The position numbers and the translations under genes were made by a program. A stretch of 63,786 nucleotides of DNA, the filler included, from Atractiella rhizophila (lineage: Eukaryota), in NCBI GenBank assembly GCA_021432655.1. It is 5 parts of 5 records of this genome, joined end to end, with 100 filler letters (N's around TTAATTAATTAA, not from the genome) between each part and the next. Parts side by side here need not be neighbours in the genome. Positions count along the whole stretch, not along the records: positions 1 to 16,706 come from MU271895.1; 4 more parts are not named here. One strand, given 5' to 3'. Shown one piece after another: positions 1-62,730 of this stretch (position 1 is the first letter of the stretch; each line of letters begins with the position of its first letter). Under the pieces are notes generated by a model that saw nothing but the letters and a program-made list of their open reading frames with translations, was not told the origin of the DNA and did no database searches.

Positions 1-1914
1 CCACTACGTCTTGTTCCTCAGAGAGACCCTTGGACTGGACTAATGATGGTGGGAAGACAGACAGAATCACCTGATCCTCTCCAAATGACGCCTCCTCAAG
101 CTATCCCAGCCCCTACAGCTACTCCACCAATCGAAAGACGCTATCCTGAACGGCAGAGGAGACCACCAGTCGAGTTCTGGAAGGCACCCAAGCTACCCAA
201 ACCACAGGAAGAGAGCTCTGAGGACGAGTTGGCAATGTTGGCTAAGGATTGTTGGATTATTACGGAGCCTGAAGCGTTGGAGTGTGGTTTTATGGAGGTT
301 ACTGAGCATGCCATGGCTGTAGGAGCGCAAGAAAACATCCCCAAGACGTATGCAGAAGCCATGAAGACTCCAGAGGCGAAACAGTGGCATGAGGCGACGG
401 TGAAGGAGGTTCAAGCGCACTTGGACAACAAGAGTTGGGTGCTGGTAAAGCCACTAAAGGGAGCAAAGGTCATTGGATCCAGATGGGTGTTTGCTATCAA
501 GAAGAAGTCTGATGGCTCAATTGAGCGTTATAAGGCTAGATTCGTCATCAAGGGCTTCTCCCAACGTCCTGGATTCGATTTCTTCGACACCTTTGCTTCC
601 ACAGTCAAATGGGCCACCCTCAGAACCATCCTTTCGCTTGCCTGTGTCCTAGACATGGAACTGGAGTCTGTGGACATCTCAACCGCTTTCTTGAACGGAG
701 AAATGGATGCAGAAGTCTATGCCAAACAGCCAGAAGGTCACCCCCAAGGTCCTCCAGAATACGCTCTCAAACTCCTCAAAGCAATCTATGGCACCAGGCA
801 AGGAGGACGTCAATGGCAGAAGAAACTGGACAAGGAACTCGTTTCCATGGGCTTCACCAAAGTCAAGTGTGACAGCAGTCTCTGGATCTACTCAAATGGT
901 GAAGTCAAGGTGATTGTCCCAGTCTTTGTGGACGATATAATGATTGCTAGCACGTCCAAAAGCGCTGTGGAGGAGTTCAAGAAGGAGTTAGGGAAGAGAT
1001 TCAAGCTGAGGGACCTTGGAGCGACGGAATTTTTGCTTGGAGTGAGGATTAGGCGTGATAGGAATCAGAGGAAGATGTGGTTGGATCAGGAGCAATATGT
1101 TAAGGACCTTCTCTCTCGACAGAAGATGGATAGCTGCAAGCCTGTGCTCACTCCCCTCAGTGTTGGCCACGGTTTATCGAAGCAAGACTGCCCTCAGACC
1201 AAAGAAGATGAAGAAGAGATGCGGACCATTCCCTACAGTCATGTTGTCGGCTCTCTCATGTACCTTGCAGTTGCCACACGCCCTGACATCGCCCACACTG
1301 TTTCTGTCCTCGGAAAGTTCCTCTCCAATCCTGGCAAGAGGCACTGGGAAGCTGCCAAACACCTCATGCGCTATCTCAAGGGCACTCAAGGCATGTGCAT
1401 CGAGTATTCTGCCTCAGACTTCGATATCTCTCAACCGTTCAAGGCATATTGTGATGCAGACTTTGCAGGATGCAAAGATACTGGCAGGTCTACTGGAGGA
1501 TACCTCTTAACTATTGGAGGAGGAGCAGTCAGCTGGAGCAGCAAGTTGCAATCTCTTGTGGCACTCTCAACCACGGAGGCGGAGTATATCTCAGGGGTAT
1601 CAGTAGGACAAGAGGTGGTTTGGCTTAGGAATCTTCTCCAAGAAATTGGCTTCGCTCCAAAGGGACCAACAACACTTTATACGGACAGCAACAGTGCCTT
1701 GCAAGTCAGCAAGAATCCTGAGCACCACGGGCGCATGAAGCACTTGGATCTTCGCTTCTACTGGCTCAGGGACACAGTAGAATCTGGACTGATCACCCCA
1801 GTCTTCTGCCCTGGCGAGTCTATGCCTGCAGACCTCCTCACCAAGGCCTTACCGGTTGCTGGCGTTGCAAAATTCCGTGAAATGATGGGTCTGCGCCCCT
1901 ACCCAAGTGTATGA
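1..1914 (+). CDS. Copia Pol polyprotein (reverse transcriptase + RNase H), 5'-partial
   Basis: Motifs SRWVFAIKKK..RYKARFVIKGFSQRPG, VDISTAFLNG, LLKAIYGTRQ, VFVDD, YCDADFAG, VALSTTEAEY, KHLDLRFYWLRD, ADLLTKAL; no stops or frameshifts. Confidence 0.95.
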   Translation, partial: PLRLVPQRDPWTGLMMVGRQTESPDPLQMTPPQAIPAPTATPPIERRYPERQRRPPVEFWKAPKLPKPQEESSEDELAMLAKDCWIITEPEALECGFMEVTEHAMAVGAQENIPKTYAEAMKTPEAKQWHEATVKEVQAHLDNKSWVLVKPLKGAKVIGSRWVFAIKKKSDGSIERYKARFVIKGFSQRPGFDFFDTFASTVKWATLRTILSLACVLDMELESVDISTAFLNGEMDAEVYAKQPEGHPQGPPEYALKLLKAIYGTRQGGRQWQKKLDKELVSMGFTKVKCDSSLWIYSNGEVKVIVPVFVDDIMIASTSKSAVEEFKKELGKRFKLRDLGATEFLLGVRIRRDRNQRKMWLDQEQYVKDLLSRQKMDSCKPVLTPLSVGHGLSKQDCPQTKEDEEEMRTIPYSHVVGSLMYLAVATRPDIAHTVSVLGKFLSNPGKRHWEAAKHLMRYLKGTQGMCIEYSASDFDISQPFKAYCDADFAGCKDTGRSTGGYLLTIGGGAVSWSSKLQSLVALSTTEAEYISGVSVGQEVVWLRNLLQEIGFAPKGPTTLYTDSNSALQVSKNPEHHGRMKHLDLRFYWLRDTVESGLITPVFCPGESMPADLLTKALPVAGVAKFREMMGLRPYPSV

Positions 1915-2141
1915 GGCAGTTATGGGGCGCAATAAAACTCTGTCCTCCTTCTGGGGGTTATAAGACGCCGCTTTAAGCGGCACGAGGATCTCTCTACTGG
2001 TTTTGGACAGTCAACTAATATGTTTTCTTTTTGCCATGCCGTTTCATGCTGTCCTTATTCGGTGGGAGCTTTATTGGGTGGGTAATTTGGATGGTTCTTG
2101 GATTTGGTGGGAGCTTCAAGAGGCGGCTGCCCAGGTGGGAG

Positions 2142-2295
2142 TGTTGGATTAGGTGTTATATTTCATGGTGTTGTGTTTGTGTGGTCAGCCACCTTTGTTT
2201 TGTTTACTTCACTTCGGAGTTTTAGCCCCCTAGGGGGCAGTTTAGGCGGTCATCATCTTTGACCACCAATCTCTGTCCCCTAGCTCCATCCAGCA
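2142..2295 (+). repeat. 3' LTR (154 bp) of the Copia element
   Basis: Starts TGTTGGA immediately after the purine tract AGGTGGGAG and ends TCCAGCA (imperfect terminal inverted repeat); the inverted Copia copy begins straight after. Confidence 0.8.
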
Positions 2296-3500
2296 TCAGA
2301 TTCTCTCACCAAGGTCCCTCAGCTTGAATCTCTTGCTTAACTCCTTCTTGAACTCCTCCACAGCGCTTCTGGATGTGCTAGCAATCATTATATCGTCCAC
2401 AAAGACTGGGACAATCACCTTGACTTCACCATTCGAGTAGATCCAGAGACTGCTATCACACTTGACCTTGGTGAAGCCCATAGACACGAGCTCCTTGTCC
2501 AGTTTCTTCTGCCATTGACGTCCTCCTTGCCTGGTGCCATAGATTGCTTTGAGGAGTTTGAGAGCTTATTCTGGAGGATCTTGAGGGTGACCTTCTGGCT
2601 GCTTGGCATAGACTTCAGCGTCCATTTCTCCGTTCAAAAACGCAGTTGAGATGTCCACAGACTCCAGCTCCATGTCTAGGACACAGGCAAGCGAAAGGAT
2701 GGTTCTGAGGGTGGCCCATTTGACTGTGGAAGCAAAGGTGTCAAAGAAGTCGAAGCCAGGATGTTGAGAGAAGCCCTTGATAACGAATCTACCTTATAAC
2801 GCTCAATTGAGCCATCAGACTTCTTCTTGATAGCAAACACCCATCTGGATCCAATGACCTTTGCTCCCTTTAGTGGCTTTACCAGCACCCAACTCTTGTT
2901 GTCCAAGTGCGCTAGAACCTCCTTCACCGTCGCCTCATGCCAGTGTTTTGCTTCTGGAGTCTTCATGGCTTCTGCATACGTCTTGGGGATGTATTCCTGT
3001 GCTCCTGCAGCCATGGCATGCTCAGTAACCTCCATAAAACCGCACTCCAACGCTTCAGGTTCCGTAATAATCCAACAATCCTTAGCCAACATTGCCAACT
3101 CGTCCTCAGAGCTCTCCTCCTGTGGTTGGGGCAGCTTGGGTGCCTTCCAGAACTCGACTGGTGGTCTCCTCTGTCGTTCAGGATAGCGTCGTTTGACTGG
3201 TGGAGGAGCTGCAGGGACAGGGATAGCTTGAGGAGGCATCATTTGGAGAGGATCAGGGGATTCTGTCTGTCTTCCCACCATCATTAGTCCTGTCCAAGGG
3301 TCTCTCTGAGGAGCAAGACGTAGTGGGGGTGTTACTGTTGAACCTTGGGTATAAAGGGTTAATCTGCACTGTTGGGAATGACTGGTCATTTTAGTGCAAT
3401 TGGCTAAATCCAGCAGTTACTGGCCGCTCTGGAGCAGCCTGTGGCCTGTCTGGTGCTTCTTCCCTCTCTTCCTCCACTTCCTGATCTTCTCCTTCATCCC
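2296..3500 (-). pseudogene. Decayed inverted Copia pol fragment of the same family
   Basis: Reverse complement closely matches 1-~1020; 1-bp deletion near 2790 (AAGGTAGA vs AAGGCTAGA), TAC->TAA stop near 2567, truncated after KRFKLRDLG. Confidence 0.92.
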
Positions 3501-3504
3501 TTAA

Positions 3505-3687
3505 TGTAAGGATCTAAGGCTAGGAGTAGTTGGTGGTCAATAATGAGGCATTGATGAAGTATAGAGAGACATACCCATTCTTGACCACCAACACTCCTAG
3601 GCAAAACTAAACTACATAGTGATGACTCATATGAGTCATAAGAGGCAGATGACCAAAACAACACACTGCACCTAACAAAATCCAGCA
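3505..3687 (-). repeat. Related LTR (183 bp), solo or left by internal deletion
   Basis: Minus strand runs TGCTGGATT...TTACA and shares the start pattern and the TTGACCACCAA...CCTAG block with LTR 2142-2295; no matching 5-bp TSD seen (CTTAA vs TCTGG). Confidence 0.65.
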
Positions 3688-5126
3688 TCTGGAGCAGCTT
3701 CTTTCTCTTTCCAAGCCCGCCTCGATCTGACCATCGAGCTCTACAAGCCTTGTACCAGAGCTATCATAGCTTTTCAACGTCCAAACATCACCTTAGCTGA
3801 CATTTTCTTGTACTGGATCATCATTATCACGAACATCAAAACCCTGGGCAATAACTCAATACCAGGTGATGGGCTGTTCGACCTCAGAAACAGCATCACA
3901 GAGATCTTCAACAAACGTTTGCAACCAATCATCTGCCCACGCAACCTCATTCCTCGTACAGTCTATCACTCCACCAATGATGCATACCTTGTCGCTTTCT
4001 TCCTCCATCCCTATTGGTTCCAGACTGGTGTGCTCAAGTTTGATTGTGAAGACCTCAAGGTTCGGATTGGAAAAGAGCTGATCAGCCTCTTTGAGTCAAC
4101 ATTTCAGATCGACCAATCCAGGGGACAGAACCTTGTCACACGGTTTGTTGATCAAGTGAAGCTGTATACAGACAAAGCACAACCATTCAACAGTCCATTT
4201 GTTTTCAAAAAAGATCAGCCACTTGGTTGGTGGGAAGGGCTCCCTTGCAGCCGTCAAGCTGACCTCCTCGGACCTCTTGCTGTCCAGCTCTGTTCGTTCT
4301 TCAGCGACAGAGGTGGCAAGATGGAATAATGTCTTTTATTACGTGGATTCAAAACAAATATCGCAACAAATTGAAGTGGGAAACAACCATGGATCTGGTG
4401 ATGTGTAGGGATTATTATTTGGAGGGATATAAGAAGGAGATGGAGGACACGGAAGAGGAGATTAAGCGAGATCTAGCAAAGGCAGTATAAAAAAGAGTGC
4501 CAGTTGTCACTGGAAAGCATTTGGAGAAGGATGAGAAAGATTTGAGTATTCTTGAGCGGATCGAGAAGGAGTTAGAGCCAACTGAGGAAGACAATACTTC
4601 GAAAAGCATTCCAGCAAGTCAATTGGGTGGGAGGTGGAGAATTTGAACAAAGGTTTTTAACATCCCTCAAGGGGTTGTCAGTAAATAACTGAGCATTTTA
4701 GTTTTTCATTGGACCCTGAGTCTACGTTCTCAAGAACCTTGAACCTATATTGTAGACAGCCACTTGGAGGAGGATACATAGTAATATAATAGTCATTTCT
4801 CCGCTGACACATGAATAATCCTCACTAATTTCTTTCAATTTCCATCATTCTCAGTCTCATTCTATGTAAGAATATGGAAGTTTGCATGCATGTCATTTGC
4901 CATTACGAAAAAAGAACCGGCAACGAACCATGATCAACACTACTTTTGGTAATGTGTCGTATCGTGTTGGGATGGGCCCGGCGGGTTGATCGTGCCTATC
5001 GAATCGAACTCGAATCGGGTTGTTAGCCGTGAGCACGAACACCAATGATACGTGCAAGGCCTCTCCGATATGACTCGATAGGGATATCGAGCTAGATGGC
5101 GGATTCGAGTCCGATAGCCATCCCTA
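3688..5126 (+). mobile_element. hAT-superfamily DNA transposon remnant (transposase C-terminus and right end)
   Basis: ORF 3808-4329 has AYLVAFFLHPY, PLGWW and LGPLAVQLCS, typical of the hAT C-terminal dimerisation region, then degenerates. A TAGGGATGGC hAT-type terminus lies on the minus strand at 5126-5117, with short TCGA-containing subterminal repeats at ~4998-5115. Confidence 0.7.
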
Positions 5127-5746
5127 GCAAGACCCCTGCGGTGCAAGTCCCAGTGCTTTGTGGCTCGCATTAGCAGATCCCGTTCTTGGCGGTCCTCCAG
5201 CAGTTCATTTCGACTCCCAATTCGCTAGGATCCATTACGTCTTTTGGTCGTGAAGGTCGTGCTTGCCACAATCAGGCTAGATCCAACTTCCTCTTCGGAC
5301 CACCCTGTTTCGTATTTTTAACATCTCCTAAACTGGCACATACCTTTGACCATGCGTCGTCGCTGTGCAGCACTATCCTGGGCGACAGCCGTGTACCCAA
5401 ATGTCGCCTCGATAGATCAGCGAAATGTATATGTACGGGGGAATAAGAACATCAAACCTCTTCTGTGTACATATTTCCATCCACATGTAAAAACCAATCA
5501 ACAAACGAAGCAACTAACGCTATAATCGACTATGGTCTGAGCTCTCCACACGAGCTCAACGTCTTCACTCATCAATCATGCCCGTGCCCTGGTACACTTT
5601 ATGCTGTATCTCGCATCCTTGCCCAGCGGCTTTGAGTGTACTTCGTCGTTCTCGCTTCGGCTACTGCAGTTAACTTCTCCAGGGATTTCGTGTTCCAACC
5701 CTCGAGTCGGTAGATCTCGTCTTCTACGTTGCCGTTACTGACCTCT

Positions 5747-7318
5747 TTAAGACCGTGCTACTCGCCAATGTACCGATCCCATAGCTGGCCGAAAAAGAGG
5801 TTCGCCATCTACCTCGCGACTACGACCGTAATATGGAGGCGCGAGGAGCGTTGCGTGGTACAGATCGCGGCTCCTCCAACCGTGCACAGAACCGCCAGGC
5901 GTTTTGAGGACAAGCTGGACAAATATTGTCAATGGTACGCCGTTGAGGGCTCAAACTCACATTAAATGCTGGAAAGAACATTGAATTCGCCAAAGGGTAC
6001 GTCTCATACTCTTCATTGAATGCTTTGTGGCTGTATGTGACATTGCGATCAGTTTTGTCAACATGAGATGGTCCCATGTAGCCACCAGCGCAGTACTGGG
6101 TGACAGGGAGAAATTGGAGATTTGCTTTCAAGGGATGTGCCAGGTTGGATATGCTCCAGTCGTAATAGACTTCCGGAACAACCTTTTCCATCAAAGTCAA
6201 GATGCGGCATCCGATCACTGAATACTTTGAGCAATGCCGATGCATTGATGGTTGGCATACCACTGTTGGTATCTGCCAACTCTAGCTTACATCTCTCTCT
6301 TCTTTCCCCTTCCGCGCGCTTAGATCCTATGAGGTCTTCATCGTCGATATTTTCACGAGGCCTCTACATGCAGGAGATAAGAATCTTACTCCACTAGATC
6401 GGCAGTCCTGAACCTGCTCACCTTGGCCAGGCCACTGGTCTTTGGCGCAAAAGTTCCAATACTCCTCCCGACCTGAGCTGCCCGTCGGCCAGAAAATCCA
6501 CTCATGCGCCGTCGAGAGGTACTGGCTCGCGCTTTATGCCGAACTATGGGAGCAAGTAGATCTAGAGTGGACAATATTGCATCTATCGCATCCCAATCCA
6601 TCATCGAGAATGTTGAAATGTTCGCTAGCGACCTGTTGATTGAGTCAGATTATTTGTGATGCAAATGATACAAGAACACGAAATACTAAAGCTTTCAAAG
6701 GTAATCGATCGCCATTTCTGGAATCCAGTCTGGATCCGCCATAGGATGATTGTTCTTCACCAGCCAATCCAGGTCCAGGATATAAACTGACTCTGGTTCA
6801 TCGGAGCTGGGTTCAATGATATCCGAGTTGCATAGTTCAAGCACCAGTCGCAGACTCTCATTTGCATCTTTCGTCTTGCGCGATTTCGGGTTCCGAATCG
6901 GGGAAGATGGGAGGTTGACCCTATGAAATGTCTCAGCTACCTGAAGCGGAATCAGCAAAGCGAAAGTAAGGACAGACCCCGAATGAAAAAAAGAGTTGTC
7001 CGTTTCTTTCTCCTTTTTGGTATCTTGGACACGATTCAGTCGCACGATAGGAATCGAAGCACTTGTGGACCTCACTTTCGCTGATGACCTTAGCTGTCCA
7101 TTTGGCTGCAAAGGGGAAAGTAGTGCAGCAGTTTATTTTCTGATTAGGATCGACCCGAAGGAGGTCACCGTAAGCCTTTTTTGACAATGACTAAATGCTC
7201 GGTCAGCTGACATCGGAAGAGGGTCACGAAAACTAACATAGTCAATAGAAACTTTTAACAACGTCGGAAAAATATTCGACACAAACAAATGCTCCTGGGC
7301 GAAGCATTGTAGAGTCAT
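5747..7318 (-). CDS. TET/JBP-like 2OG-Fe(II) dioxygenase (catalytic part 5747-6604 intact; upstream exons separated by two in-frame stops)
   Basis: Manual splicing gives RMSGFSGRRAAQVGRSIGTFAPK ... GYMGPSHVDKTD (HxD at 6057-6065) ... SMFFPAFNLVLKTPGGSVHGWRSRDLYHATL (distal His at 5855-5857); three GT-AG introns keep the frame. The 5' end is uncertain. Confidence 0.65.
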
Positions 7319-8178
7319 TCCTGTTTAAATTGGATATCGTTCGTACTTGCGACATGAACGAAGGAGTACGAACCAGCAACTCAGTTGATCTAATAGATTC
7401 TTCATAGTTGTGAAACGCGACAAGAGATGCCAGAATCCGCTTCTTATTTTACAAAGTCATGTTCGAAACTTTCCTTCAACTCAGTTGTGAACTACCCAAT
7501 AATGTAGCGCTCTATATTCATTGATTTCGTGCCGGTGTGGAACGTGTCTGAGTAGTTCGAGAAGTTGGTCCTGTCTTCCTCAATTGGCGTGAAACATTTA
7601 TACTTTACGGTGCTCCATATTTTATCGAGATTTGAGATATTCGGTCAATCAACCGGCGGGTGCTTCAAAGCTGGTCTTCCTCATGTTTGCTTTCGGAATG
7701 AGTTTGGGGTTTTTCAGTACCCCTGGTCTCTTCGAGGTCCCACTTCGACCCCCTAACAGTCTCGAACTGCCTGGGGAGGATGGTGCCTGGTGTGTTGCAG
7801 AGTTTCTGTCCCCACACCTGTCACGCATGAACCTAGAAAAGATGGCGAGAAGGGGGGACCATAGGCCTAGTCTTGGCCAAATCCATCAATGCGAGATGAG
7901 AAAGCTTCTCAGATCGGCTCCCAAGGAAACCACGAACCACAGGAGAAAACCATTCCTTTCCTTAGCGCATTTGTTGTTTGCATGTTATTCTTAAGGTTAA
8001 CGAACGCTAATTTTGGGTAAGGTTCAAACGGCCATTTTTATGGATATCAATGGAATCGACATACGAAACACTGGGTGGAAAGGACCCCTTCATACATGTC
8101 CATCGCAGCGCTGAGAGAATATCCGCTTTCATCGGGTCATGAGAAGGGCCGTTTGAACTCAAGTGTGCAAGCCTCAGT

Positions 8179-8374
8179 CAAAATGTCCGAGACATCGTTT
8201 CCATCCAAAATGTCCGAGATATCGCTTCCATCCAAAATGGCCGAGGAATCGTTTCCATCCAAAATGTCCGAGACATCGTTTCCATCCAAAATGGCCGAGG
8301 AATCGTTTCCATCCAAAATGTCCGAGACATCGTTTCCATCCAAAATGGCCGAGGAATCGTTTCCATCCAAAATG
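8179..8374. repeat. 27-bp minisatellite, 7 units
   Basis: Unit CAAAATG(T/G)CCGAG(AC/GA)ATCGTTTCCATC; two variants mostly alternate. Confidence 0.95.
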
Positions 8375-8761
8375 CCTTATTGCTCGTATCCATGACAGTT
8401 TCAGGAACGGCCGTTTGATTCGACTTATTTTTCGAAATCGCCGTTTAATTCACCAGTCACCCAAATCTTTCTTTGCCATTTTTAGCGTGTTAAAGTTCAC
8501 TCCTTTGTTCTCAGCCGTTTGTCGGCGATTCGAGACCGTGAGGGACCCCAATAATCTAATTGGAGATGATTCGGTATAAAAGACCATACCCCTACTCTCG
8601 TCGGTTGGACGGCGTCACCTGATATCCTGCAAAGCCGTATTTCCTCCCTGGCATACAGGCAGATAACCACCCCTGGTCTTTGGTAACCCGTCTCTTTTCC
8701 ATGACAAACTGGAGATGTGAATATCATATGCTCTTTTGTTCAGAAATAGCCAACTCTGTCA

Positions 8762-10732
8762 ATGGTAACCGATACTCCCCAATATTTGCTTTTTACCATG
8801 TCCTTTGAGGATTTGGGAACGATAGCAGACCAACCGATTGCTCTTGAGGATTTCGGATACATGTGGTCCGTCCTCTCACCACTTAAATTGAAGTTGTTGA
8901 GATGAGAATACATTAGGGGCATGTTCTCGAAAGCCCTTTCAGGAATTAAGAAGGGTCGACGGTTCGAGAACTCACTGTGGCGTCTGTGGTATGAGGAGAT
9001 GTCACCGTCTGCCACTCCATTCATGCGGGCGAGGCAGCCAAAGACAATCAAGGCAGTGCTCGAGACTTTAATTCGCCTCGCCCAGGATGATTTTGTGGAA
9101 GACAACGTCGAAGCGGCGTTGGAGAAACTAGTCGAGGCGTCTCCACATTTGACCTTGGCTTTGGGCGGCGCGAGGCTGGCTTCGGGGAGGGAAAGAGATG
9201 GATGTACCGGGGGCCTAGTGTTCAAACCACGGCCACCTGTTCCACATCCCCTGGGTAAACTCCAAATCTCTCTTATAAGCGCAAGTTCCACTGTCATTTC
9301 CCAGCCGACACTTCCGACTCCAACAGGAGCATCAGACGATGCCGTTGTTGAGCGACATGACATTACTCAGTTGGGTGGATTAGGATCGCTGAAGCGGCGT
9401 AAAACCTCGAGCTCAGCAGAGCTGAAGGGAGCGATCTCACCCAACTTGACAGGTCCACCACACTTTGCACAGGAGGTGAGGGAGCCGTCTCACCAGTATC
9501 CAAGGAGGAAGGAAGCGCCTCCCATGACTCCCAGCCGAGCCGAGACGGTCATCGGTGCATCGCCTCGTTTTTCCTCAAAGCATGTTGGTCGAATGTCTCG
9601 CGATCATGTTCACAACGATTCCACCAAACCTTCGCTCTCCCGTCGCCCCAAAGCTCCACCACGGGGAGTTGACCTCCCTTCCCCTGGCTACACCAATCCG
9701 CTGAGACCTCTCCTCCCGCTCAACCCTCCGTCGCCGGAACCAGAACGACGGAGCCAACAGATATGTGGAGGGACCAGGAGGAGGAAGATCCCCTATATCC
9801 CTCCGCCAATCAAAGCCGATCCGTTGAAAGTGATAAGGGGCTTCGAAATCGTGCCTGATGATGTTTCTTCGACGAGTCTCACCCTTCCTCAGCCCTCGAG
9901 GATTGAATGGAATATGGGGGAACAGGAGAAGCAGATCGTGTCACAGAGAGGAGAAGCAAACTTGGCGCCATCGGGACCCAAATCGTTGGAGAGAGCGATG
10001 GACCTACGCCAAATTACTCATGATCAACCGTCCGGCATTGTGGCTTCTTCCTGTGTTGCTGCTTTGTCTACGCAGGCAGAGAAGAGAGAATCGCGGCCCG
10101 TTCTTCCTCCTTCGAAACTGGCTCCGATGCTGGTTTCCTCTGCGTCTGATAAACTGCACGCGACGGATGATTTGAATTGCTCAGAAGGAGAGGAGGAGGG
10201 TGATGATGATGAATGGCAGGCAGCTTTGCAAAAGGAATGGGACGAACATAATAAGGATAAGGAGACTTGGTTCGTCAAGCGTCTTGTCTCCATAGCCCAC
10301 GTCACTCGTCCTTCTGCTCTCACCGCTATCTTTGATCCCTCCAAAGTTGATGAAGATCTACGCGCCAAAGCGATCTTATATCGGGAGGAGATTAAACGTC
10401 TATGCGCCGCTAGCAACATCACTACAGCTCTCGGAGTTAAGGGTACTGCGTCGAAGAGCGGCGCCGAGGATGACGGGGGGGTAGATGAAGAGGAGAAGCA
10501 GCAGTGTCGGTTGGAAATTGAATGGAAAGAACGACATGAAGTTCTAATGCCTCCGCCTCTATCACCAACGACGACTAGACGCAATATGTTGGCGGAAGAA
10601 TTTAGAGAAGGTCTGTGTCGGAATCTCATCAGAGAGAGTCAGGTGAGGAGACGGAATGGAGGTTATGACCCTTGGGACTGGGCAACGGCTATCAAGGATT
10701 CAATCTGCGGAAACCCGAACAGTGCCTTGTAA
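8762..10732 (+). CDS. DUF1752 (N-terminal) / DUF3295 (C-terminal) fungal protein
   Basis: After one intron (~8866-8916): YMWGMFSK...GRRFENSLWRLW (RLENxSWRxW type); C-terminal SPTTTRRNMLAEEFREGLCRNLIRE resembles the DUF3295 consensus. Start is 8762 or 8798. Confidence 0.75.
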
Positions 10733-12544: not shown

Positions 12545-15212
12545 TTAGTATTGAGGGTTGTAGAAGTTATCCCGGAAAGCAACAGGTGGGTTAGGTTGAT
12601 ATCCACCCATAAAGACGTATGGCGGCCAGCCAAAGGAAGGGTGACGATGGATCGGGGCGAACTGTTGAAAGGGGACAGGAGAAACGCCATGAAGACCCTT
12701 GGGAGGCATTCCGCCGCCTGTCAACCTTTGATGGAATCCTCTGCCGCGATTCATCTGGTCGTTGTTTTCACCAGAAATCTTGCATTCAATCTTCTTGCCA
12801 TAAGGCTTATCCCTGATCTGTGGAAGAATGGGTTTGATCTGACTGACGAGCTGACCTCCTCTTAGTGACTAACAGGTTTCGCTAGGTGACTACCTACTTT
12901 GTCCCATTGGCCGCGATCAGCATAATCGAGAGCGGTTTGACAAACGTAGTTTCCAAACGGATCTAGAAGCAACCTCCCCACACCATTATCCGCCAGGATC
13001 TCATCGATAATAGCTCGTTTTTCATCTGGACCTGCAGCGCGGATGCACTATACGGCATAATCGCTCAACAGCACAATTGTGCGAAAACGGACGCACTTTT
13101 TCAACGACGTTGGAGCTAAACCTCTGCATAGACAGAGCATAGATGTTCCCCAAGAATTGGTGAACAATAGTCTCAGTGCAGTCAGCGTTGGACAGATCCA
13201 AGCAATGCTGAATAACGTAGTTGCCTGTTCGAAAGTGTCAATCACAATCCTCGGGGAAGGCGGAACAGACCGAAAGAATCTTGAACCAATATGAGAGAGT
13301 TGTCGATGACCTCCTTGACTAGTTGAGCCCTCTGCGAATGCGTCCCACGATCGATGCATTGTTGAAAGACGCAGCAGCCGTATCGATCGGTTGCAACCTT
13401 AAGACAGTTAGTGGACACCGCATTATAGATGAACTGAGAGGAATAAAATTAGTTGGTTTGCCATTGTGAGCGAAACAAACCTGGTTGTCTTGCGGAGCCA
13501 GGTGATCGAGGCACTTCTCGATGACATGCTGTCCACGCAGGTCTCGAATTAAGGTGAACACGTTCAAGTTAAGACCAGCGACCAAGCTCATGACCTGGCT
13601 TCGGGTGGAAAGGTAATCGATGATGTTCTGGACAGCTCGAGTTCCGTGCGTGTTCAACGAGATGGAGACCAGTTTGTTGGAAATAGACTTGAGGAGTGCG
13701 TCTCGCTGCTCATCAGAAGATAACTGGAATAGCTTCTGGGAGAGATGAGTGCTAACTGCTCCATGAGTTATGAGGATAAGATCTCCTTCCGTAGAGAACA
13801 ATTCGTACAGCGACCCATCATCAATTCACTGAAGTGGGGAAGAGCTCCTTGTTGATCAGATCACGATGCTTGGGGTTACCTTCCTCCAACTGCTTTTGAA
13901 GGTATCTGCTGCCGTCTTGACCCTGGGACAGTAAGTACAACCCACCCTGTAGATCTTCGAGCCTCCGAAGGCTGGCATGAAGGTTGCAGCCATACGATTG
14001 ATGTCCTTTTGATTTCCAGTCCGTAAAATGAGAGTGGAATAGAGAGCTGAAATTTCCAGCGATGCAGGTCTATCAAGCCGTCAGCTTCAGAAGGCAAGCC
14101 AAAGCTTGAAACTGATCCCATACCTTGGAAATCGCATCGGTGACAGCATCAAGGGTTGGGGAAGGTGCTCTCGGAATGGCGCTTTTGACTGGAACATGCG
14201 GGTCCTGGTCCTTGTCCTCTCTCACCAATCCCATGGATCCTACACTGAGCCGCATCACCGATTCATAAGTGCGTAGATGATCGGTTTGTGCAGCAATTTG
14301 AAACGGAAACTCAAGCGAAGCTTCTGAGCAATTAGTCTCACGACTGAGAGGAGAGCACCGGATTGCTGTACCAGACAGCACATTAGCGGAAAAGTTCTGG
14401 GTCTGTTTATCGGCAACATTGGTGCCGCCGTTCGCAGTCCTAGTGCTCGTCGCAGGTCCAGCGCCAGGACAGTCCTGAGGTTTAGGCGCCAAATCCAATA
14501 CAGCTAAAGAGGAGAGAAGTCGGCATTCCACCTCGACTTGATCAGAGTTTCCAAGGCTGGTCTTCTTGTGCGCGTGAGAGTGAGTCGTAGGAACGATGTG
14601 ATTCTCAACTTCGATGCGTTGCTTTCTTGTTCCGGGATTATGTTGACCCTGCCAATTATTGTCAATGAGTACTGGGTGATGCTAGAGATCAAGAACTCAC
14701 AGCGACCAAAGCCAGATCCTTCGGCTGCGAGCAGATGATAGAATCAGAACATCTCACGATCTCAACATTAACCTCACGTCAAGCACTTCTCTGAGCCAAC
14801 CGCTCTTCTGGCCATTCGCACTGTTACCGTTAGCACTAAGGCCCACGTTCCTTTCGTTGAGACATGGCGGATGAGGGCGAGAACCTGGAAGGACGCCATG
14901 ACCAAAAATGGAGCTGTTGCTCTTCGTCGCTCCAGCGATTCCGTTAACTGGAAGCAAGTTATCGGCGAAAGGAGACTGCTGAAGCCTAGGCTCAAATTTG
15001 GTCACTCCTAAGGAAGGGAGGGTTTTCGAATTCGTGAGGTTGCGGGGATGTGCCTCACTTCTGGAGTGTGAACAAACGAGCCAAGATTGGGAAGAGAGAG
15101 GAGAAACATGCTTCTGTTGCGTGAGTTTATTAGACAGTCGACCGCGAAGCAAGGGGACTCTTACAGGCGCTTTGCCTTGAGGCGGGGCTTCCCAATCACT
15201 CTCGATAGACAT
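12545..15212 (-). CDS. Pumilio/PUF RNA-binding protein (Puf4/Mpt5-like), multi-exon
   Basis: Eight PUF repeats recoverable by splicing: QDGSRYLQKQL, STHLSQKL, NTHGTRAVQ, DLRGQHVIEK, DRYGCCVFQQ, DSFGNYVIQH, QRFSSNVVEK, DPFGNYVCQT; low-complexity N- and C-termini. Confidence 0.88.
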
Positions 15213-16111
15213 TGAGGCGGGTAACGTTGAAGCTGAAGTATTTGACTTGAAAGTTAGACGTGGCTCAGAATTGGAGGGTCGTTGGGGATTTGCGATGATG
15301 GATACTTGTTAAAAGGCAGCCGCGGGGAAGGATGAGAAAATGCACCAGTAGTTCGTTATCAGCGTGACTGGCATGACCGTCCATTTATAGGAAGAGCCTA
15401 GCCGTATTGAATTATCGTTCTGAATGACACACAATAGGCTGGATCAACAGTGGCTGATTTTTGGATAAAGTTCAAACGGTCTTGTATGGGTTGTATCAAT
15501 GAAATCGACATGCGAAAACGAGGTGGAAGGATGTCCNNNNNNNNNNNNNNNNNNNNNNNNNTGAGCCAGAAACTTCCTCAGGACCCAAGCATTAAAAGGC
15601 ACTACCCATCGATTATCATATATAAACTCTTGGCCCCGTATCATCTTGTCTCATGTTGAGGTGGAGTAGGTGGAGTAGGATTAAAACAGGTGGGGCGTCG
15701 CCTCTCTCTTACAGGTTGACCATGGTGTAGTGGTGCCTCCTGCTGCAGAGATTGATGCTGTTTGGATCGGCGCTCTCGATTTCTAGTTTGATTTCTCTGA
15801 ATTGCACGTGGCATGAGAGTGTAGCTTGCTGCACATAACAAAATGATATGAGTGAAGAATATATAAGCCAGAGTCCACACACCTATGCTTTTTTTGCTTG
15901 ATTTGATTTGATGCTAACAGGCTCAGGGATACTATGGTAGACTGTCAGGAAGCATATTTGTGGTGAAAGAAACTGTTTCACTTGCATGAATGCTTGCTCA
16001 CTTTCCCTCATAGATGGCACACAACAGTTTTTGGCGCATGACCTGAGAAATCACGGAAAGCCTTGAAGAAATCGCGTGCACGCAGTTTGCGCACAATAGG
16101 ATTTGGCAGTG

Positions 16112-16520: not shown

Positions 16521-16806
16521 TTACTGGCAGGGTTGTTGTGGGTGGTGAGAGAAGTGCTCAAAAGTACATGCGTGAGTCATGCTAAAAACCCGTCGTGCTT
16601 TATATATAAGGATATACCCACCTATCAAGCAAACCAAGCCCCCCTTGACCACCCATAGCGCTCTGTACAGCGTCCCGAAGCCGTATTCCTCTCCCAGCGG
16701 CAACTTNNNNNNNNNNNNNNNNNNNNNNNNNNNNNNNNNNNNNNNNNNNNTTAATTAATTAANNNNNNNNNNNNNNNNNNNNNNNNNNNNNNNNNNNNNN
16801 NNNNNN

Positions 16807-17556
16807 ATCTTACCACTCAGGCCATATTGGAGGATCGTCCTATCCCTACAATAATCACAAAGTGTATTGCTGCCGTTGAAGCTATCGGTACGGATTTCAT
16901 TTCTTGTATCATGCAAACCGCTGACCCTCCGTCAAGGGATGGAATACGAAGGGATCTATCGGAAGACAGGCGGATCGGCTCAAACGAAACTCGTCACAGC
17001 TTGTTTCGAAAAGGGTGAACCGTTCGATCTTGAAGATTCGGATCGCTTCAACGACATCGCTGCAGTTACCAGTGCATTCAAGAACTACCTTCGTTCACTT
17101 CCTATTCCTCTTTTCACCTTTGAGCATCATGAGTCCTTCATGGCCGTTGCAAGTGAGTTCCTCCCATCCATGGTGCTTGATTTCCAGTTCTGACGATAGT
17201 ATTCAGCCATGTCAGAGGCAGACGGTCGAACGGAGGTGCTCGAGAAGCTTCTTCATATGCTACCCGAGATTCATTTCAACACTGTCAAGTTCATCATGAC
17301 CCACTTGCATAGAGTCCACCTGGCCTCAGAGGAAAATAAAATGACATCTTCCAATTTGGGAGTCGTGTTTGGACGTGAGTCTATCCTTCTGTTCGTATTC
17401 AGATGAAGCTGACATGATCTGGTGAAAGCGACTTTGCTGCGGTCTTCGAATCCCGCTAGAGAGTTTTCTGATATGGGATCCAAAGCTAAAATCGTCGAAG
17501 TTCTCGTCGAGAACGCAGTTCAATTATTCTCACAGCCTTATCAGAGCTTTTTCTAA
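16807..17556 (+). CDS. Rho GTPase-activating protein (RhoGAP domain), 5'-partial
   Basis: IPTIITKCIAAVEAI..GMEYEGIYRKTGG, DIAAVTSAFKNYLRSLPIPLF, ENKMTSSNLGVVFG; three introns; starts at a gap. Confidence 0.92.
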
Positions 17557-18145
17557 CTTGTGATTATCTCCGTTTGTCATGTTTACAGAAAAGGAAAATG
17601 AAGAGGACAATAATCGAACTTGTTTCAGTTAGCTGTTTGTGTTCATAGCACTTTCTGTTGCGTTCGGTTTCTCTTCGTCTTTTCACACTCCTTCTTTCGA
17701 TTTACCATCAAGGCTGTCAAGATGAATTTCGATACTATTGTTTTGATAACTCCAGGCTTTTCTTTCCGCTTCGTCACGTCCTTAACTTGTTTTCTCTGCA
17801 TCGAAGGTAACTCTGGCCAGTCCTAGATTTTGTCTCAAGGCTTTCTTTGTCGCCATTCTTCTTTCCGTTTGTGATTTATGGTTGCTCCTCTTTCGCCTTT
17901 GTTCGACTATCGTCATCCTACTTCATGTCGTTGATACCCCACCTTACCGATTGGTTTTCTTTCAGGCTGTTGATTACTATACATTGGGACTCGTTTGCAG
18001 AAATGGAATGTGTCCTCTCACAAGACAACTATCTGCCGTTTGATGCATGCAAATGAGCAATTTCCGAAAGAGGAAATGCTTAATCTCACGCAAACTAAAC
18101 TTGAGAGAACCAACACCTCAGGTTGCGGACGGTCATAAAGCAGCC

Positions 18146-19067
18146 ATGCAATCTCCCATGTATCCCTCACCTCTCTCTGCGGTGCCACGAGATCGTTCCT
18201 CTCTCGCTTCGCAGCTGACTGTGGACTCCTCGCATTCGAGCACCCGTTTCTCGACACTATCGGTGGGCCCCAGTGGCAGTGGTAGTGCTCCCTCCAGCAA
18301 GAGGACGTCCTTGATTTACGACCGTCCAATCAACAAAACGAAGAATTCCGAGGTTGCTCTGAGCGCTTGGGAGTTTTGGTTCAGTGAGATTGTGCAGTAC
18401 ACCCAAGGACGAGTCGCGGGGATTGCTGATTTTGAAAAGAAGTTCGTCTTTCTCTTCTTGATACAAATGTACAAGTTGATTCTTCTTTGCAGGTTGAATA
18501 CGCTGGGTTACCGCGTAGGATTGTCCCTCGTCGAGCTTTATCCTCTCCGGGATTCCTTACACAGTTCTTCCTCTTCCTCCACTTCCTACCTCTCCCGCTC
18601 TGCTCCACCGACACGGATCCTCCGTCTCCTTCCCCTCCTCTCCTACATCCACACCACGCTCTATCGGCACCTCTTTGGACGAGCAGCTGACAGTCTCGAG
18701 AAGAGTACGGATAATGAGGACGAGTACATGTTGGGAGATAACAACCCGACACTCACGAGGAGCATCAATGTCCCAAGAGAAATGAGCCAGCTTTGTTGTA
18801 TGGCTTTTGTGGCGGGTATCGTGGAGGCATTCATGGATGGAATGGGGTTTGTACGTTTGTGCCATCCTGTCTTACCTTCAAAAGAGCATTGACGCATATC
18901 CTGGGCAGCCTGCACGAGTAACAGCACACAATGTACCAACGGACCAGTTCCCAAGAAAGTGCATTATCCTGATCAAACTAGACCGGTTCGGTTTTCCCTC
19001 TGCTGCCTTGCGTGTCTGAGAAACTTGGATATTCAGGTCAGTGATGGAACGAGAAGCAGCATTCTGA
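18146..19067 (+). CDS. TRS31: TRAPP complex subunit Trs31 (TRAPPC5)
   Basis: EVALSAWEFWFSEIVQYTQ, LNTLGYRVG, LFGRAADSLEKST, SQLCCMAFVAGIVEA, PARVTAH; three introns. Confidence 0.92.
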
Positions 19068-22115: not shown

Positions 22116-24688
22116 ATGGCGGCAGTTATCGACCACAATTCGATCGACCATATCGATGTTGCGATAAGGACCAATGGCAAACACCCAACCCATCCCAAGC
22201 CTCACGTAGACTGGGAGGAGTATCTCAAGCTCCATAAAGAGAGCCTGGAACAGCCAGAGAAGTTTTGGGACCGTGTACGCCGTTTCCTTCACGGTTTTAA
22301 TTGTTGAGATGCTGAAGTAAGCAAGGTATGGTAGATGGCAAAGGAAAACCTCTACTTCCACAGGCCGTACACCACCATTTCGGCAGGCGGCTTCGAGGAA
22401 GGAGACATCCAATGGTTTGCCGAGGGGGCGTTGAACGCATCGTACAATTGTGTAGATCGCTGGGCTTACACTCAACCTGACACTGTACGTCCAATTCTCA
22501 CTTCGTCCCAAAGTTTGCGAGTTGACAATAGTACAGGCGGCCTTGATGTATGTCACCATTTCTTAGAAAACCTGACGGGAGCTCATTTGACCTGCAAAAA
22601 GATGGGAGGCAGATGAGCCGGGACAACACAAGACGGTCACATACCGCGAGCTGCTTCAAGAGGTGTCGCGAATGGCGAATATTCTCAAAGACCTCGGTGT
22701 GAGGAAAGGCGATGTGCGTACATCCCTTGCCACTCCGTATTCTGTTTTATGACGACGCTCTGCAGACCGTCGCGATTTACCTTCCCATGATCCCGGAAGC
22801 AGCCACCGCTTTCCTCGCCTGCGCTCGAATTGGAGCCATCCACTCTGTCGTCTTCGCCGGATTCTCTGCCGAATCTCTACGAGACAGGATCAACGATTGC
22901 GGTTGCAAAGTGGTGATCACAACAGACGAAGGTAAGAGGGGGGGAAAGACGATTGCGACAAAGAACATCGTCGATGCGGCCCTCAAGGAATGTCCTGGAA
23001 TCCAGAAGGTGTTGGTCGTGAGGAGGACTGGTGGAAAGGTTGAGATGAAAGAGGGCAGGGATCTCTGGTGGGAGGAGGAGAAGCTGAAGGTCAAGCCTTA
23101 CTGCCCGGTTGAGGTCATGAGCTCTGAGGATCCGCTTTTCATCCTTTACACTTCTGGTACGTCCCTTTTCGAGAGCTTGCTTTGAGTGGTTGCTGAAATG
23201 CGAGATGTAAACCAGGATCGACCGGAAAGCCCAAGGGTGTCCTTCATACTACCGCTGGATACCTTCTTGGCGCTTGTATCACGGTCAAATATATTTTCGA
23301 CGTACATCCAAAGGATATCTTTGCCTGTATGGCTGATGGTTTGTCCTCTTCTTATCTTCTCAAGTCTAAGGTGATCTGATTTCTGCTGTGAAATCAAGTC
23401 GGATGGATTACTGGTCACACCTACATCATCTACGGACCCCTCTGCAACGGTGTTACCACCGTCATGTTCGAGTCTACACCTGTCTACCCCACTCCAGCAC
23501 GCTACTGGGAGACGGTTGAGCGGCACAAGATCACACAATTCTACACCTCTCCCACAGCCATCCGTCTTCTGCGAAGACAGGGAGAGCAACACACCAAGAA
23601 CAACAAGATCGACTCCATCCGGACCATCGGCAGCGTCGGTGAGCCCATCAACCCAGAGGCTTGGAATTGGTATTGGGAGCACGTTGGCCAGAAGGAAGCT
23701 GCTGTTGTGGACACTTATTGGCAGACCGAGACGGGCAGCATAGTCATTACTCCTCTTCCTGGAGCCACGCGGGTCAAACCTGGTTCTGCTACATTCCCCT
23801 TCTTCGGTATCGAACCTGTTCTCCTTGACCCTGTCAGTGGAAAGGTGCGCTCATCTCACTCCTCATTATAACCTCGCAAACTCATGTTGTTACATTGCAG
23901 AGGGTGGAAGGCGAGAAAGACGTCGAAGGTGTCCTCGCAGTCAAACGTCCCTGGCCATCCATTGCCCGCTCTGTCTGGGGAGACCACGCCAGGTACCTTG
24001 AGACCTATATGAAGCCGTACAAGGGCTACTACTTCACGGGCGACGGTGCCGGAAGGGATAAGGACGGTTACTGGTGGATCCGTGGACGAGTTGACGGTTC
24101 GTTTCCATCTCTTCTTTCCTTGCTCTTTGTGAGCTGATGAGATGGAATGTACCCCAGATGTTATCAACGTCTCTGGCCATCGTCTCTCAACTGCTGAAAT
24201 TGAGTCGGCCCTCATTCAACATCCTGGAGTGGCAGAGACTGCCGTTGTCGGCGTTGCTGATGACTTGACAGGCCAAGCCGTCTATGGTCAGTACTTCCCC
24301 TCGATCAGCAGCATATTCAACCCTGAAATTTGACGGATAAAACAGCCTTCGTCACCCTGAAGCCTGAGTTCAAATATGACGAAAACCATGAAGAAGGGCT
24401 TGTGAAGGAGCTCGTCCTCCAAGTTAGGAAGACAATTGGTCCCTTCGCCGCGCCAAAGAAGATCTGCATCGTCCCTGATCTACCGAAAACTAGGAGCGGA
24501 AAGATAATGAGGAGGATCATGAGAAAGGTGGTTGCTGGGGAGGGAGACCAACTTGGTGACCTTTCGACCCTTGCAGATCCATCAGTTGTAGATGCGATTG
24601 TGAGCTTTTCGATTCTCTTCTACTGACGAATATAGACTAATTCGCGTTGCGCCGAAAACAGAAAACAAAAGTTGGGACCATGAAGTAA
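22116..24688 (+). CDS. ACS1: Acetyl-CoA synthetase (AMP-forming)
   Basis: [85 protein letters not shown]; multi-exon. Confidence 0.97.
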
Positions 24689-31799: not shown

Positions 31800-33821
31800 A
31801 TGAGTTCTGCCACAGACTCGCCTAGGCTGGAAGAAAAGGGTGGGATGATCGTGAGTATTAGGATCCTTGGGAGATCCCTTGCACTAGCTTTTTGACTGAC
31901 CAACGCCATCTAGGCTGTTGCAGTGGCTGCTACAATATCAGCGGTAGCCTGCAGCTCTTTATCTCTCTACATCGCTTTCCTCTTCTACCAAGTCAAGCGC
32001 TCGGAAAACAAACGATGGGCTCCTGAAGTCCAGCTGAGGACGAAGTTTTTACGGACGCAGTCGGTTCCTCTTCCTTCTTTAGCACACTTGACATCTAAGC
32101 TGTGCTGCTCCAGGTTTGGACTCTTGTTTATGAATCTTTTGCTTGCAGACCTTATCCAATCAATAGGTAGGCGATAGGGGAATTGTAAGATTTATCTCAG
32201 TGATGGCATAGGTTTTGCTCTCAATTTTCATTGGGTCGCACAAGTTGGCTACATAGACGAAACCGATTCCACCTGCCAAACACAAGCAGTTGGTGAGCAC
32301 CAGTTAGCTCAACGCACGAATATCTCTAATTGAACTTTTTACAGCGATCGAAGTTGGAGATGTCGCGTCAGCACTCTTTGCGCTTGCAATCTCTGCCCAC
32401 ACGGCTTGCATTCTTGCCTTTCGTTACAAGCCACCAAAGTGGTCTGTTTGGGTCGTAATAGCGAGTATATGGGCTCTCGTCATCACTCTCACTGTCAGCT
32501 CCCGCATCCCCCTTGAAGGCGTCAGCTCATTGGCCTATAGGTTATTGGACCCGAGGCACTGGAAAGAAGCAAGGATGGACAGTTTTGTGAGTTGCCTCTA
32601 TATCAATGTTGATCGACTGAAGAAGGTGGTAGATGGTAACGCTGGTGCCTGGTGCTGGATAGCCCCCGCTTACCAAGATGAGCGATTGTATTTGCACTAC
32701 CTCTTCGTCTTTATCAGCAGTGCGTCTTTCTTCTACTACTCTGATCTATAACTAATACGGGCAAAGTGTTTGGGAGTTTTACTCTTTATACGCTCTGCGG
32801 TCTTGCCCTTAAACAAATATGGCCTTTCAATCGCGAGCTTGCTATTATCCAACGTCCACCGTCGGTTTCTGGCACGCAGTCCAGCGGGAGCTCTGGAAAC
32901 CAACGTGGGAGTAGACAAGACACCGTCCAAATGAGGGATCTCCCGAGCTTTGCGAGATTGGAGAAAATGGCACGAACGATGATTTTTTACCCCATAGTTT
33001 TCAGCTCCCTGGTTCTCCCTTTGAGTGTTTATCGACTGGCGGTGATGAACGGTCATAAGGTACGCCCTACTTTGACTGTAAGGCGATTTTGCCATTGATA
33101 GACCGACTGCAGTGGAGTCTAAAAGCGTTATGTGCAGCTGGCTTTTTATACACGACCTGTGGTGTTGCGTGCGTTTCATTGACTTTGCGTTTTCAACCTC
33201 AGGCTAACCCTACATCCTACAGAGATGTGATTATCTTTTCCTTGACGTGCGTCCTGCCTCGACCACCTTCCAAGCTTGAGCTAAAATGTAACCGTTCTTT
33301 AGGCGCAACATCATAGAAGTCAAACGGCACCGGAAGTCAGGCTCGTTAGGCAGTGGCAATAACCGAAGCGGAATCCACGTTCATCGAATCCAAACAACTT
33401 TCATTGATATGCCAAATGCAGAAGATGATCTCAAATCACCTCGTTCACCGAGAAGCTGGAAACATGATTCATCGCCAGATAGCTGGAAACACGATTCATT
33501 GGATCCCGANNNNNNNNNNNNNNNNNNNNNNNNNNNNNNNNNNNNNNNNNNNNTTAATTAATTAANNNNNNNNNNNNNNNNNNNNNNNNNNNNNNNNNNN
33601 NNNNNNNNNATTTCACTGTGACTTCTTTGGAACCTGTTGGACATTGGAGAGGATGGAGGAGGCATGAGGCCGTCGTCCATCGCCTTGTTCATCAGTATCG
33701 ATTAGAAAGAACCAACGTTTCTGCTACAGCTCCGATGACAGCTACGACTTGGCACAGGTCAACAGTCGTCAATCCTCAACCCCTTCCTGACGAAGCAACG
33801 ACCCATCTCGTGTACCCATAA
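31800..33821 (+). CDS. Git3/Gpr1-like 7TM G-protein-coupled receptor (3' end crosses a gap)
   Basis: LFMNLLLADLIQSIG, CQTQA..IEVGDVASALFALAISAHT, GNAGAWCWI...ERLYLHY, ARTMIFYPIVF..LVLPLSVYRL; many short introns; stop position tentative. Confidence 0.82.
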
Positions 33822-62630: not shown

Positions 62631-62730
62631 NNNNNNNNNNNNNNNNNNNNNNNNNNNNNNNNNNNNNNNNNNNNTTAATTAATTAANNNNNNNNNNNNNN
62701 NNNNNNNNNNNNNNNNNNNNNNNNNNNNNN

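Follow-up and report, generated by a model that had tools for sequence, protein, structure and literature searches.

The window analyzed here, 63,786 nucleotides (nt) of the fungus Atractiella rhizophila (assembly GCA_021432655.1), carries on its minus strand, from about 7375 to 5599, a locus that would be one copy of a gene family dispersed in this genome. In its full form the family would encode an N-terminal domain of ~330 amino acids (aa) followed by a C-terminal domain of ~230-290 aa that we read as a divergent TET/JBP-type Fe(II)/2-oxoglutarate (2OG) dioxygenase. We consider the TET/JBP-like identity of this domain likely, on one indirect line of evidence, the neighborhood of the protein in a protein language-model atlas. 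For the combined reading, in which the TET-like family is very divergent and the window copy is a relic of it, we put the chances at about even.

The gene is real, spliced and previously annotated as a hypothetical protein. Four minus-strand exons (6604-6422, 6363-6261, 6217-5961 and 5914-5747), joined by script, give an open frame of 236 aa with zero internal stops and a stop codon at 5749-5747; they are separated by intron 1 at 6421-6364 (58 nt, GTGAGC..ATGTAG), intron 2 at 6260-6218 (43 nt, GTATGC..ATTCAG) and intron 3 at 5960-5915 (46 nt, GTGAGT..GTCCAG). The public gene model (5599-6604, minus strand; 267 aa; KAH8914721.1, hypothetical protein BT69DRAFT_1342371 of Atractiella rhizophila, referred to below as P0007) has the exons 6604-6422, 6363-6261, 6217-5961, 5914-5813 and 5757-5599 (tblastn identity 97-100%), and hence a fourth intron at 5812-5758 (55 nt, GT..AG). 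When this fourth intron and the last exon, 5757-5599, are added to our spliced translation, the product is letter-for-letter identical to the 267-aa protein, whereas the three-intron version (5747-6604, minus strand, 236 aa) keeps ...GRSREVDGEPLFRPAMG, like the paralogue P0009. The splice structure is beyond chance, because paralogues share 80-96% identity with exons that occupy different frames, and the same junctions recur in the paralogue models P0009, P0001 and P0002. A first-pass annotation of this DNA had assembled scattered fragments, which occupy three different frames, into one frame across three canonical introns; the spliced translation bears this out, the public model uses the same introns, and all of the motifs it quoted are present (MSGFSGRR at residues 34-41, HVDKTD at 147-152, FFPAFN at 176-181, GGSVHGW at 188-194 and YHAT at 200-203). 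It had also called the gene hidden, which is correct for a plain open reading frame (ORF) scan, to which the gene is invisible, and incorrect for the public annotation, which contains it.

The evidence that carries the family assignment comes from the atlas. The clusters nearest to P0007 carry PF12851 Tet_JBP (score 0.95, with 210 of 256 features shared and 23 of 30 hits in agreement); the other seven of the 30 neighbors are clusters without a name, of which the top one is basidiomycete, and the ten best family-bearing hits all share family or clan with Tet_JBP. In the calibration of the atlas, shuffled proteins reach a score of 0.95 about once in 100 cases, and at least 170 shared features are typical of true members. 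The family returned is the same one that the first-pass annotation had named independently, from motifs.

The order and spacing of the candidate catalytic residues fit the TET/JBP family. The N-terminal Gly/Arg motif, MSGFSGRR (6482-6505, minus strand, in the spliced translation), is kept as MSGFSG in P0001, P0009, P0005 and P0008, the site lying outside P0002. The HVDKTD motif (6048-6065, minus strand) contributes H147 (6065-6063) and D149 (6059-6057) as candidate Fe(II) ligands, and SHVD is kept in all four copies that cover the site (P0007, P0001, P0002 and P0009). The candidate distal Fe(II) ligand, H201 of YHAT (5855-5857, minus strand), follows 54 residues past H147, with YHATLL kept in all three copies that cover it (P0007, P0002 and P0009), and a candidate 2OG-binding Arg is found in R212-S-R214 (5816-5824, minus strand), 11 and 13 residues past H201. 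Among the TET/JBP criteria, then, we see an H-x-D/E motif (weak evidence alone) and a distal His about 50 residues downstream of it. An intact copy would coordinate the iron through H147, D149 and H201 and bind 2OG through R212 or R214, and the enzyme would presumably oxidize a methylated DNA base, for which 5-methylcytosine (5mC) is the default guess.

Two reference points have a comparable spacing. CcTet of Coprinopsis cinerea, a dioxygenase of 5mC and 6-methyladenine (6mA) with a solved structure, uses His326, Asp328, His376, Arg385 and Phe391 (PMC11040006), and the corresponding residues of gp2 of Mycobacterium phage Cooper are H171, D173, H221 and R236. The distance from the H-x-D His to the distal His is 54 residues here, against 50 in CcTet and 50 in gp2, and the Arg follows the distal His at +11/+13 here, against +9 in CcTet and +15 in gp2 (CcTet values from PMC11040006). 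Gly331 and Asp337 of CcTet correspond in position to D152 and S158 here, and the base-stacking Phe391 of CcTet, at Arg +6, has no in-register counterpart in our protein. By language-model features the nearest proteins are the viral Tet_JBP members (Cooper gp2, its relatives and the atlas clusters), which are also of similar size.

A considerable number of results weigh against the TET/JBP assignment. The atlas output is, by the tool's own description, a lead without an E-value. What the first-pass reading of the gene as a TET/JBP-like dioxygenase retains is its gene structure, its motif layout and the Tet_JBP call of the atlas; what it does not have is a 2OG-Fe(II) profile match, the hidden Markov model (HMM) search, run to E 10, having left five ORF fragments (three of them exon-bearing) and all seven family proteins described below without a Pfam match. 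None of these proteins reaches the curated cut-off of PF12851 Tet_JBP, 34.9 bits. Matches elsewhere were at chance level only: phrog_36753 at E 0.4 in PHROGs, TIGR00524 at E 0.16 in NCBIfam (11.1 bits against a cut-off of 185.85 bits), and PDB sequences at E 0.95-1.8. Statistical comparison with known members used the Cooper Tet_JBP gene and 98 relatives from viral contigs, of which 7 and then 29 were aligned; this reference set represents the phage clade only, and one relative, L046, was excluded from the alignment owing to a stop in its translation. Our protein stayed at chance level in all four comparisons: hhalign gave probabilities of 0.18% and 0.13%; P0007 scored -1.7 bits against the gp2-clade HMM, with 335 of 2000 shuffles higher; a test for colinear conserved blocks was equaled by 439 of 1000 shuffles; and identities at 76 conserved columns numbered 20, against 18.3 +/- 3.1, with 100 of 300 shuffles as good. 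The family has no sequence or profile match to the TET/JBP references compared.

Further points on the same side concern individual residues and structure prediction. In a global MAFFT alignment the phage H-R-D falls on S158-H-K160 and not on H147-V-D149; the same alignment does place H201 opposite the distal His of the phage proteins. The top hhalign segment, itself non-significant, pairs FPAFNLVLKTPGGSV with LPEYDVVVPCGDGSV, and its gapless extension puts H201 on phage H221. R212 is replaced by His in P0002, with SRE kept in P0002 and P0009. Iyer is said to have described, in 2009, an R-x5-aromatic motif of TET/JBP; here that motif is out of register, the nearest aromatic residue being F222, at R214 +8, and only the unspliced reading or P0009 contains F222. 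AlphaFold2 models from 4- and 6-sequence alignments have a mean predicted local distance difference test (pLDDT) of 36.3 and 31.1 and are unusable (phage rows were kept out of the folding alignment, since the model would follow them whatever the truth and MAFFT had not aligned the H-x-D motifs), and the atlas's own model of P0001 has a pLDDT of 0.33. We regard these negatives as individually weak and numerous, set against a sole positive that is a lead. They are weak because the TET/JBP family is so divergent: the recognized member Cooper gp2, run as a control, scores only 26.6-28.2 bits against PF12851, below the cut-off, so that the sensitivity of the profile for TET/JBP is evidently poor, and the fungal PE type emerged only from HHpred hits at E 1.4-19 taken together with structure comparison, at structural E<1e-5 (Kojima 2025, PMC12730594).

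At the sequence level, the family is known so far only from the single species A. rhizophila. An exhaustive phmmer search with the 107-aa core exon frame against 1.84 billion cluster representatives returned four proteins at E<=0.001, of which two are genuine: P0001, a 528-aa protein with 81% identity, and P0002, which has 116 aa and 84% identity. We discarded the other two as spurious, namely the 2675-aa repeat protein P0003 and the low-complexity repeat P0004 (508 aa). Three word-indexed searches (3/8000, 2/30 and 4/7718 candidates scored) gave A. rhizophila proteins only, namely P0005, P0006, P0007 and P0008, and P0009 was added through a cluster look-up. In the protein databases the family thereby totals seven annotated proteins on five contigs, all from A. 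rhizophila. Two scans of metagenome contigs, with narrower alignments, gave 0 of 53 candidates and 1 of 139, the latter a chance resemblance over 14 residues within an ORF for a bacterial membrane protein; tblastn against phage genomes gave one record at E=10, which we judged to be chance.

All seven annotated members are fragments or patched models. P0006 (an N-terminal part) and P0009 (a 294-aa C-terminal part) are neighbors on one 5.5-kb contig, P0008 and P0002 share another, and in P0001, P0005 and P0008 the C-terminal domain is preceded by the N-terminal domain of ~330 aa. This N-terminal domain (residues 1-335 of P0001) matches no Pfam family; the best atlas score for it is 0.80 (FAT, TPR-like helical repeats; template modeling (TM) score of at most 0.41), a weak lead, and its fold is probably helical.

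In the window, the N-terminal domain persists as a remnant at 6651-7375 (minus strand), detected by ungapped tblastn with P0006, P0008, P0001 and P0005, in segments that are 68-95% identical to the paralogues and lie in alternating frames. The frame shifts around 7060, across 6977-6921, at ~6716 (an A-run from which one A is missing) and around 6600, shortly ahead of the annotated start. The paralogues' opening 95-150 residues have no match upstream of 7375 beside the locus, and the window copy is without the first ~70-130 residues of the N-terminal domain. A similar picture is seen at the other end: P0009 stays in a single frame through ...GRSREVDGEPLFRPAMG... and beyond, across the stretch annotated as intron 4, whereas the window tail follows P0009 in three successive frames (-3 to 5771, -2 over 5795-5745 and -1 from 5751). 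Because P0009 keeps one frame where the window needs three, intron 4 looks like an annotation patch over two frame changes and is probably not a real intron. In all, the reading frame is broken at least four times before the annotated start and twice in the C-terminal tail, with the putative catalytic core (exons 1-4) open and its splicing correct, and we conclude that the window copy is probably a relic, a decayed copy of the family; the 267-aa public model would then survive by way of an internal Met start and a 55-nt 'intron' laid across the tail damage. Two considerations count against the claim of decay: it takes the paralogue models, all products of one annotation pipeline, to preserve the ancestral frame, and single-base frame changes could be assembly errors. 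The neighboring P0006 and P0009 form a locus that looks more intact than the window copy.

One public sequencing run (X1, its type guessed; 0.06 of words) yielded one contig only, of 216 nt, which covers 6807-7066 within the N-terminal remnant; no contig covers the core exons. Relative to the window this contig has one other letter changed and carries 13 letters where the window has 57, at 6921-6977; the 57-letter stretch of the window reads GT..AG on the minus strand. With the 13 letters of X1 the frame reads in a paralogue-like way (FF.RD.SGEV.LP.SP), and this stretch therefore has a more intact version, in another sample or another copy.

The decay bears directly on the possibility that the domain is TET/JBP-like and the copy functional as annotated, that is, a 236-267-aa enzyme starting from the Met at 6604. 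The open exons 1-4, the four GT..AG introns and the presence of all candidate catalytic residues would suit such an enzyme, as would the CpG content of the core, which is not depleted (observed/expected 0.93, against 0.39-0.50 in the transposon fragments), and the lengths of the nearest viral Tet_JBP clusters in the atlas (262 and 295 aa). The two tail frame changes relative to P0009 argue the other way, ~20-70 C-terminal residues immediately past the putative 2OG-binding Arg being lost or replaced in both readings, and each paralogue that covers the domain junction (P0001, P0005 and P0008) carries the N-terminal domain. A functional copy would require that this domain be dispensable and that the upstream remnant serve only as promoter or leader, and we find a functional window copy quite unlikely.

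More weight attaches to the proposal that the family is no dioxygenase at all but a lineage-specific orphan family, possibly a decaying repeat, in which H-x-D, His and Arg coincide by accident and the atlas misleads. Every alignment-based test is negative, neither AlphaFold2 nor the atlas model folds any member, the H-x-D motif is short and common, all seven members are fragments or patched models, and the atlas offers only a lead, all of which such a family would explain. The coincidence required is nevertheless a demanding one: the 0.95 score arises by chance about once in 100 and would have had to land on a family already named from motifs, 23 of 30 neighbors agree with 210 features shared, and motif order and spacing fit. 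We hold this proposal to be unlikely. If the domain were instead another 2OG/Fe(II) oxygenase (AlkB-like, or a small-molecule or protein hydroxylase), the H-x-D...H...R layout would be accounted for, being superfamily-wide (Tet and AlkB share the three metal ligands, according to PMC11040006); no Pfam 2OG-Fe(II) family matched, however, and the ten best family-bearing atlas hits belong to the Tet_JBP family or clan, which leaves this a very improbable explanation.

The TET/JBP-like reading, which we prefer, can be set against what is known of such genes in fungi. According to Kojima 2025 (PMC12730594), seven transposon lineages, hAT7 included, carry TET/JBP genes in rust fungi; H, D/E and H are the only residues that every fungal TET/JBP type shares; and Fig. 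7 shows Cooper gp2 as a member. Like the transposon-borne fungal genes (PU, AG and PE types), our family belongs to a basidiomycete (Pucciniomycotina), is multi-copy and dispersed with many truncated copies, lies (in the window) beside transposon debris and shows the H-x-D...H arrangement; as with the PE type, its divergence puts it beyond the reach of ordinary profile searches. Unlike them, the window copy has no framing transposase, terminal repeats or target-site duplication, and the family has a fused N-terminal domain of ~330 aa, of which the available portion of PMC12730594 makes no mention for the PU, AG and PE types. The name Atractiella occurs 0 times in PMC12730594, and our literature search found no paper naming both Atractiell* and JBP. 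A bolder possibility, to which we give somewhat less than even weight, is that A. rhizophila harbors an unrecognized, extremely divergent clade of TET/JBP dioxygenases that is multi-copy, has a novel N-terminal domain of ~330 aa, lacks an obvious transposase and shows no CpG depletion, unlike the adjoining transposon fragments. That such a clade would be an 'eraser' family distinct from the PU, AG and PE types, propagating itself or retained by the host, is a suggestion that we make just as tentatively. KDZ-linked expansions of fungal TET/JBP were reportedly described by Iyer et al. in 2014.

If the TET/JBP-like reading is true, transposon-linked TET/JBP expansions would reach a further class of Pucciniomycotina (Atractiellomycetes), and the family would add a new domain architecture and, after the PE type, another fungal group barely detectable by profiles; it would also bear on how frequently mobile or multi-copy genes of fungi have anti-methylation enzymes of their own. 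Should it be wrong, the family is no more than an orphan repeat in decay, of an ordinary kind. In both cases the window copy is probably not the best object of study.

The surroundings of the locus are rich in transposon debris. A Ty1/copia-type reverse-transcriptase ORF, open at the window start, occupies 1-1914 on the plus strand (PF07727 RVT_2, E 4e-57), and a partial second copy of the same element lies inverted at 2304-3326 (minus strand), recognized by its inverted repeat arms (1-535/2792-3326 at 95% and 537-1024/2304-2791 at 94%, 1.3-2.3 kb apart); from this arrangement we take the copia pieces to be a rearranged or nested retroelement at the scaffold start. ORFs at 3676-4486 (plus strand) are hAT-like by eye only. 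Pfam searches at E up to 1 or 10 gave no match for 3676-4329, 3940-4326, 4289-4408 or 4290-4486, and the hAT-like ORFs had no PDB-sequence match, no plasmid match by tblastn and no terminal repeats; the 'hAT end' that had been placed ~0.6 kb from the gene is thus without Pfam, PDB-sequence or terminal-inverted-repeat support. The accompanying statement that no KDZ transposase is visible nearby held up, in that 16 nearby ORFs gave no transposase family, and neither did 23 of the 40 ORFs of at least 150 aa in the region 20-63.8 kb (the 17 excluded being shorter overlaps of scanned ORFs or ORFs over N runs). As to the first-pass proposal of a mobile or captured gene, the family is dispersed over five contigs, yet its window copy, which looks decayed, is framed by neither transposase nor terminal repeats.

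Inverted repeats that would convincingly frame the locus were not found; the best candidate is a 17-nt pair (4577-4593/7572-7588). The two arms are complementary at 16 of 17 positions (GCCAACTGAGGAAGACA / TGTCTTCCTCAATTGGC) and bracket the hAT-like tail together with the whole TET-like locus; by a rough estimate, ~0.04 such pairs are expected by chance in the stretch.

Base composition separates the locus from the transposon nest. Over window positions 1-5000, the CpG observed/expected ratio is 0.35-0.52 per 1-kb bin (copia 0.46, inverted copia 0.39, hAT-like ORFs 0.50), against 0.93-1.03 in the TET-like locus (5599-7450) and a median of 0.89 for the window; neither the nest nor the locus departs much from normal GpC. 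This pattern fits CpG-directed mutation or methylation that would have affected the transposons and spared the multi-copy family.

The remainder of the window contains ordinary host genes: DUF3295 at 8906-10732, Pumilio repeats at 13319-13825, RhoGAP at 16855-17193, a TRAPP component at 18044-18892, AMP-binding at 22703-23185, TPR at 38455-40377, a PHD finger at 45431-46207 and a fungal transcription-factor domain at 51937-52644. A 27-nt tandem repeat at 8152-8420 (~7-10 copies, 71-95% identity) lies inside an open frame and encodes SETSFPSKM-like nonapeptide repeats, with no family match. Runs of N occur at 15537-15561, 16707-16806, 33510-33609, 50311-50410, 58271-59009 and 62631-62730 (1116 N in total), and the apparent dip in G+C at 58-59 kb is artefactual, produced by the 739-N gap.

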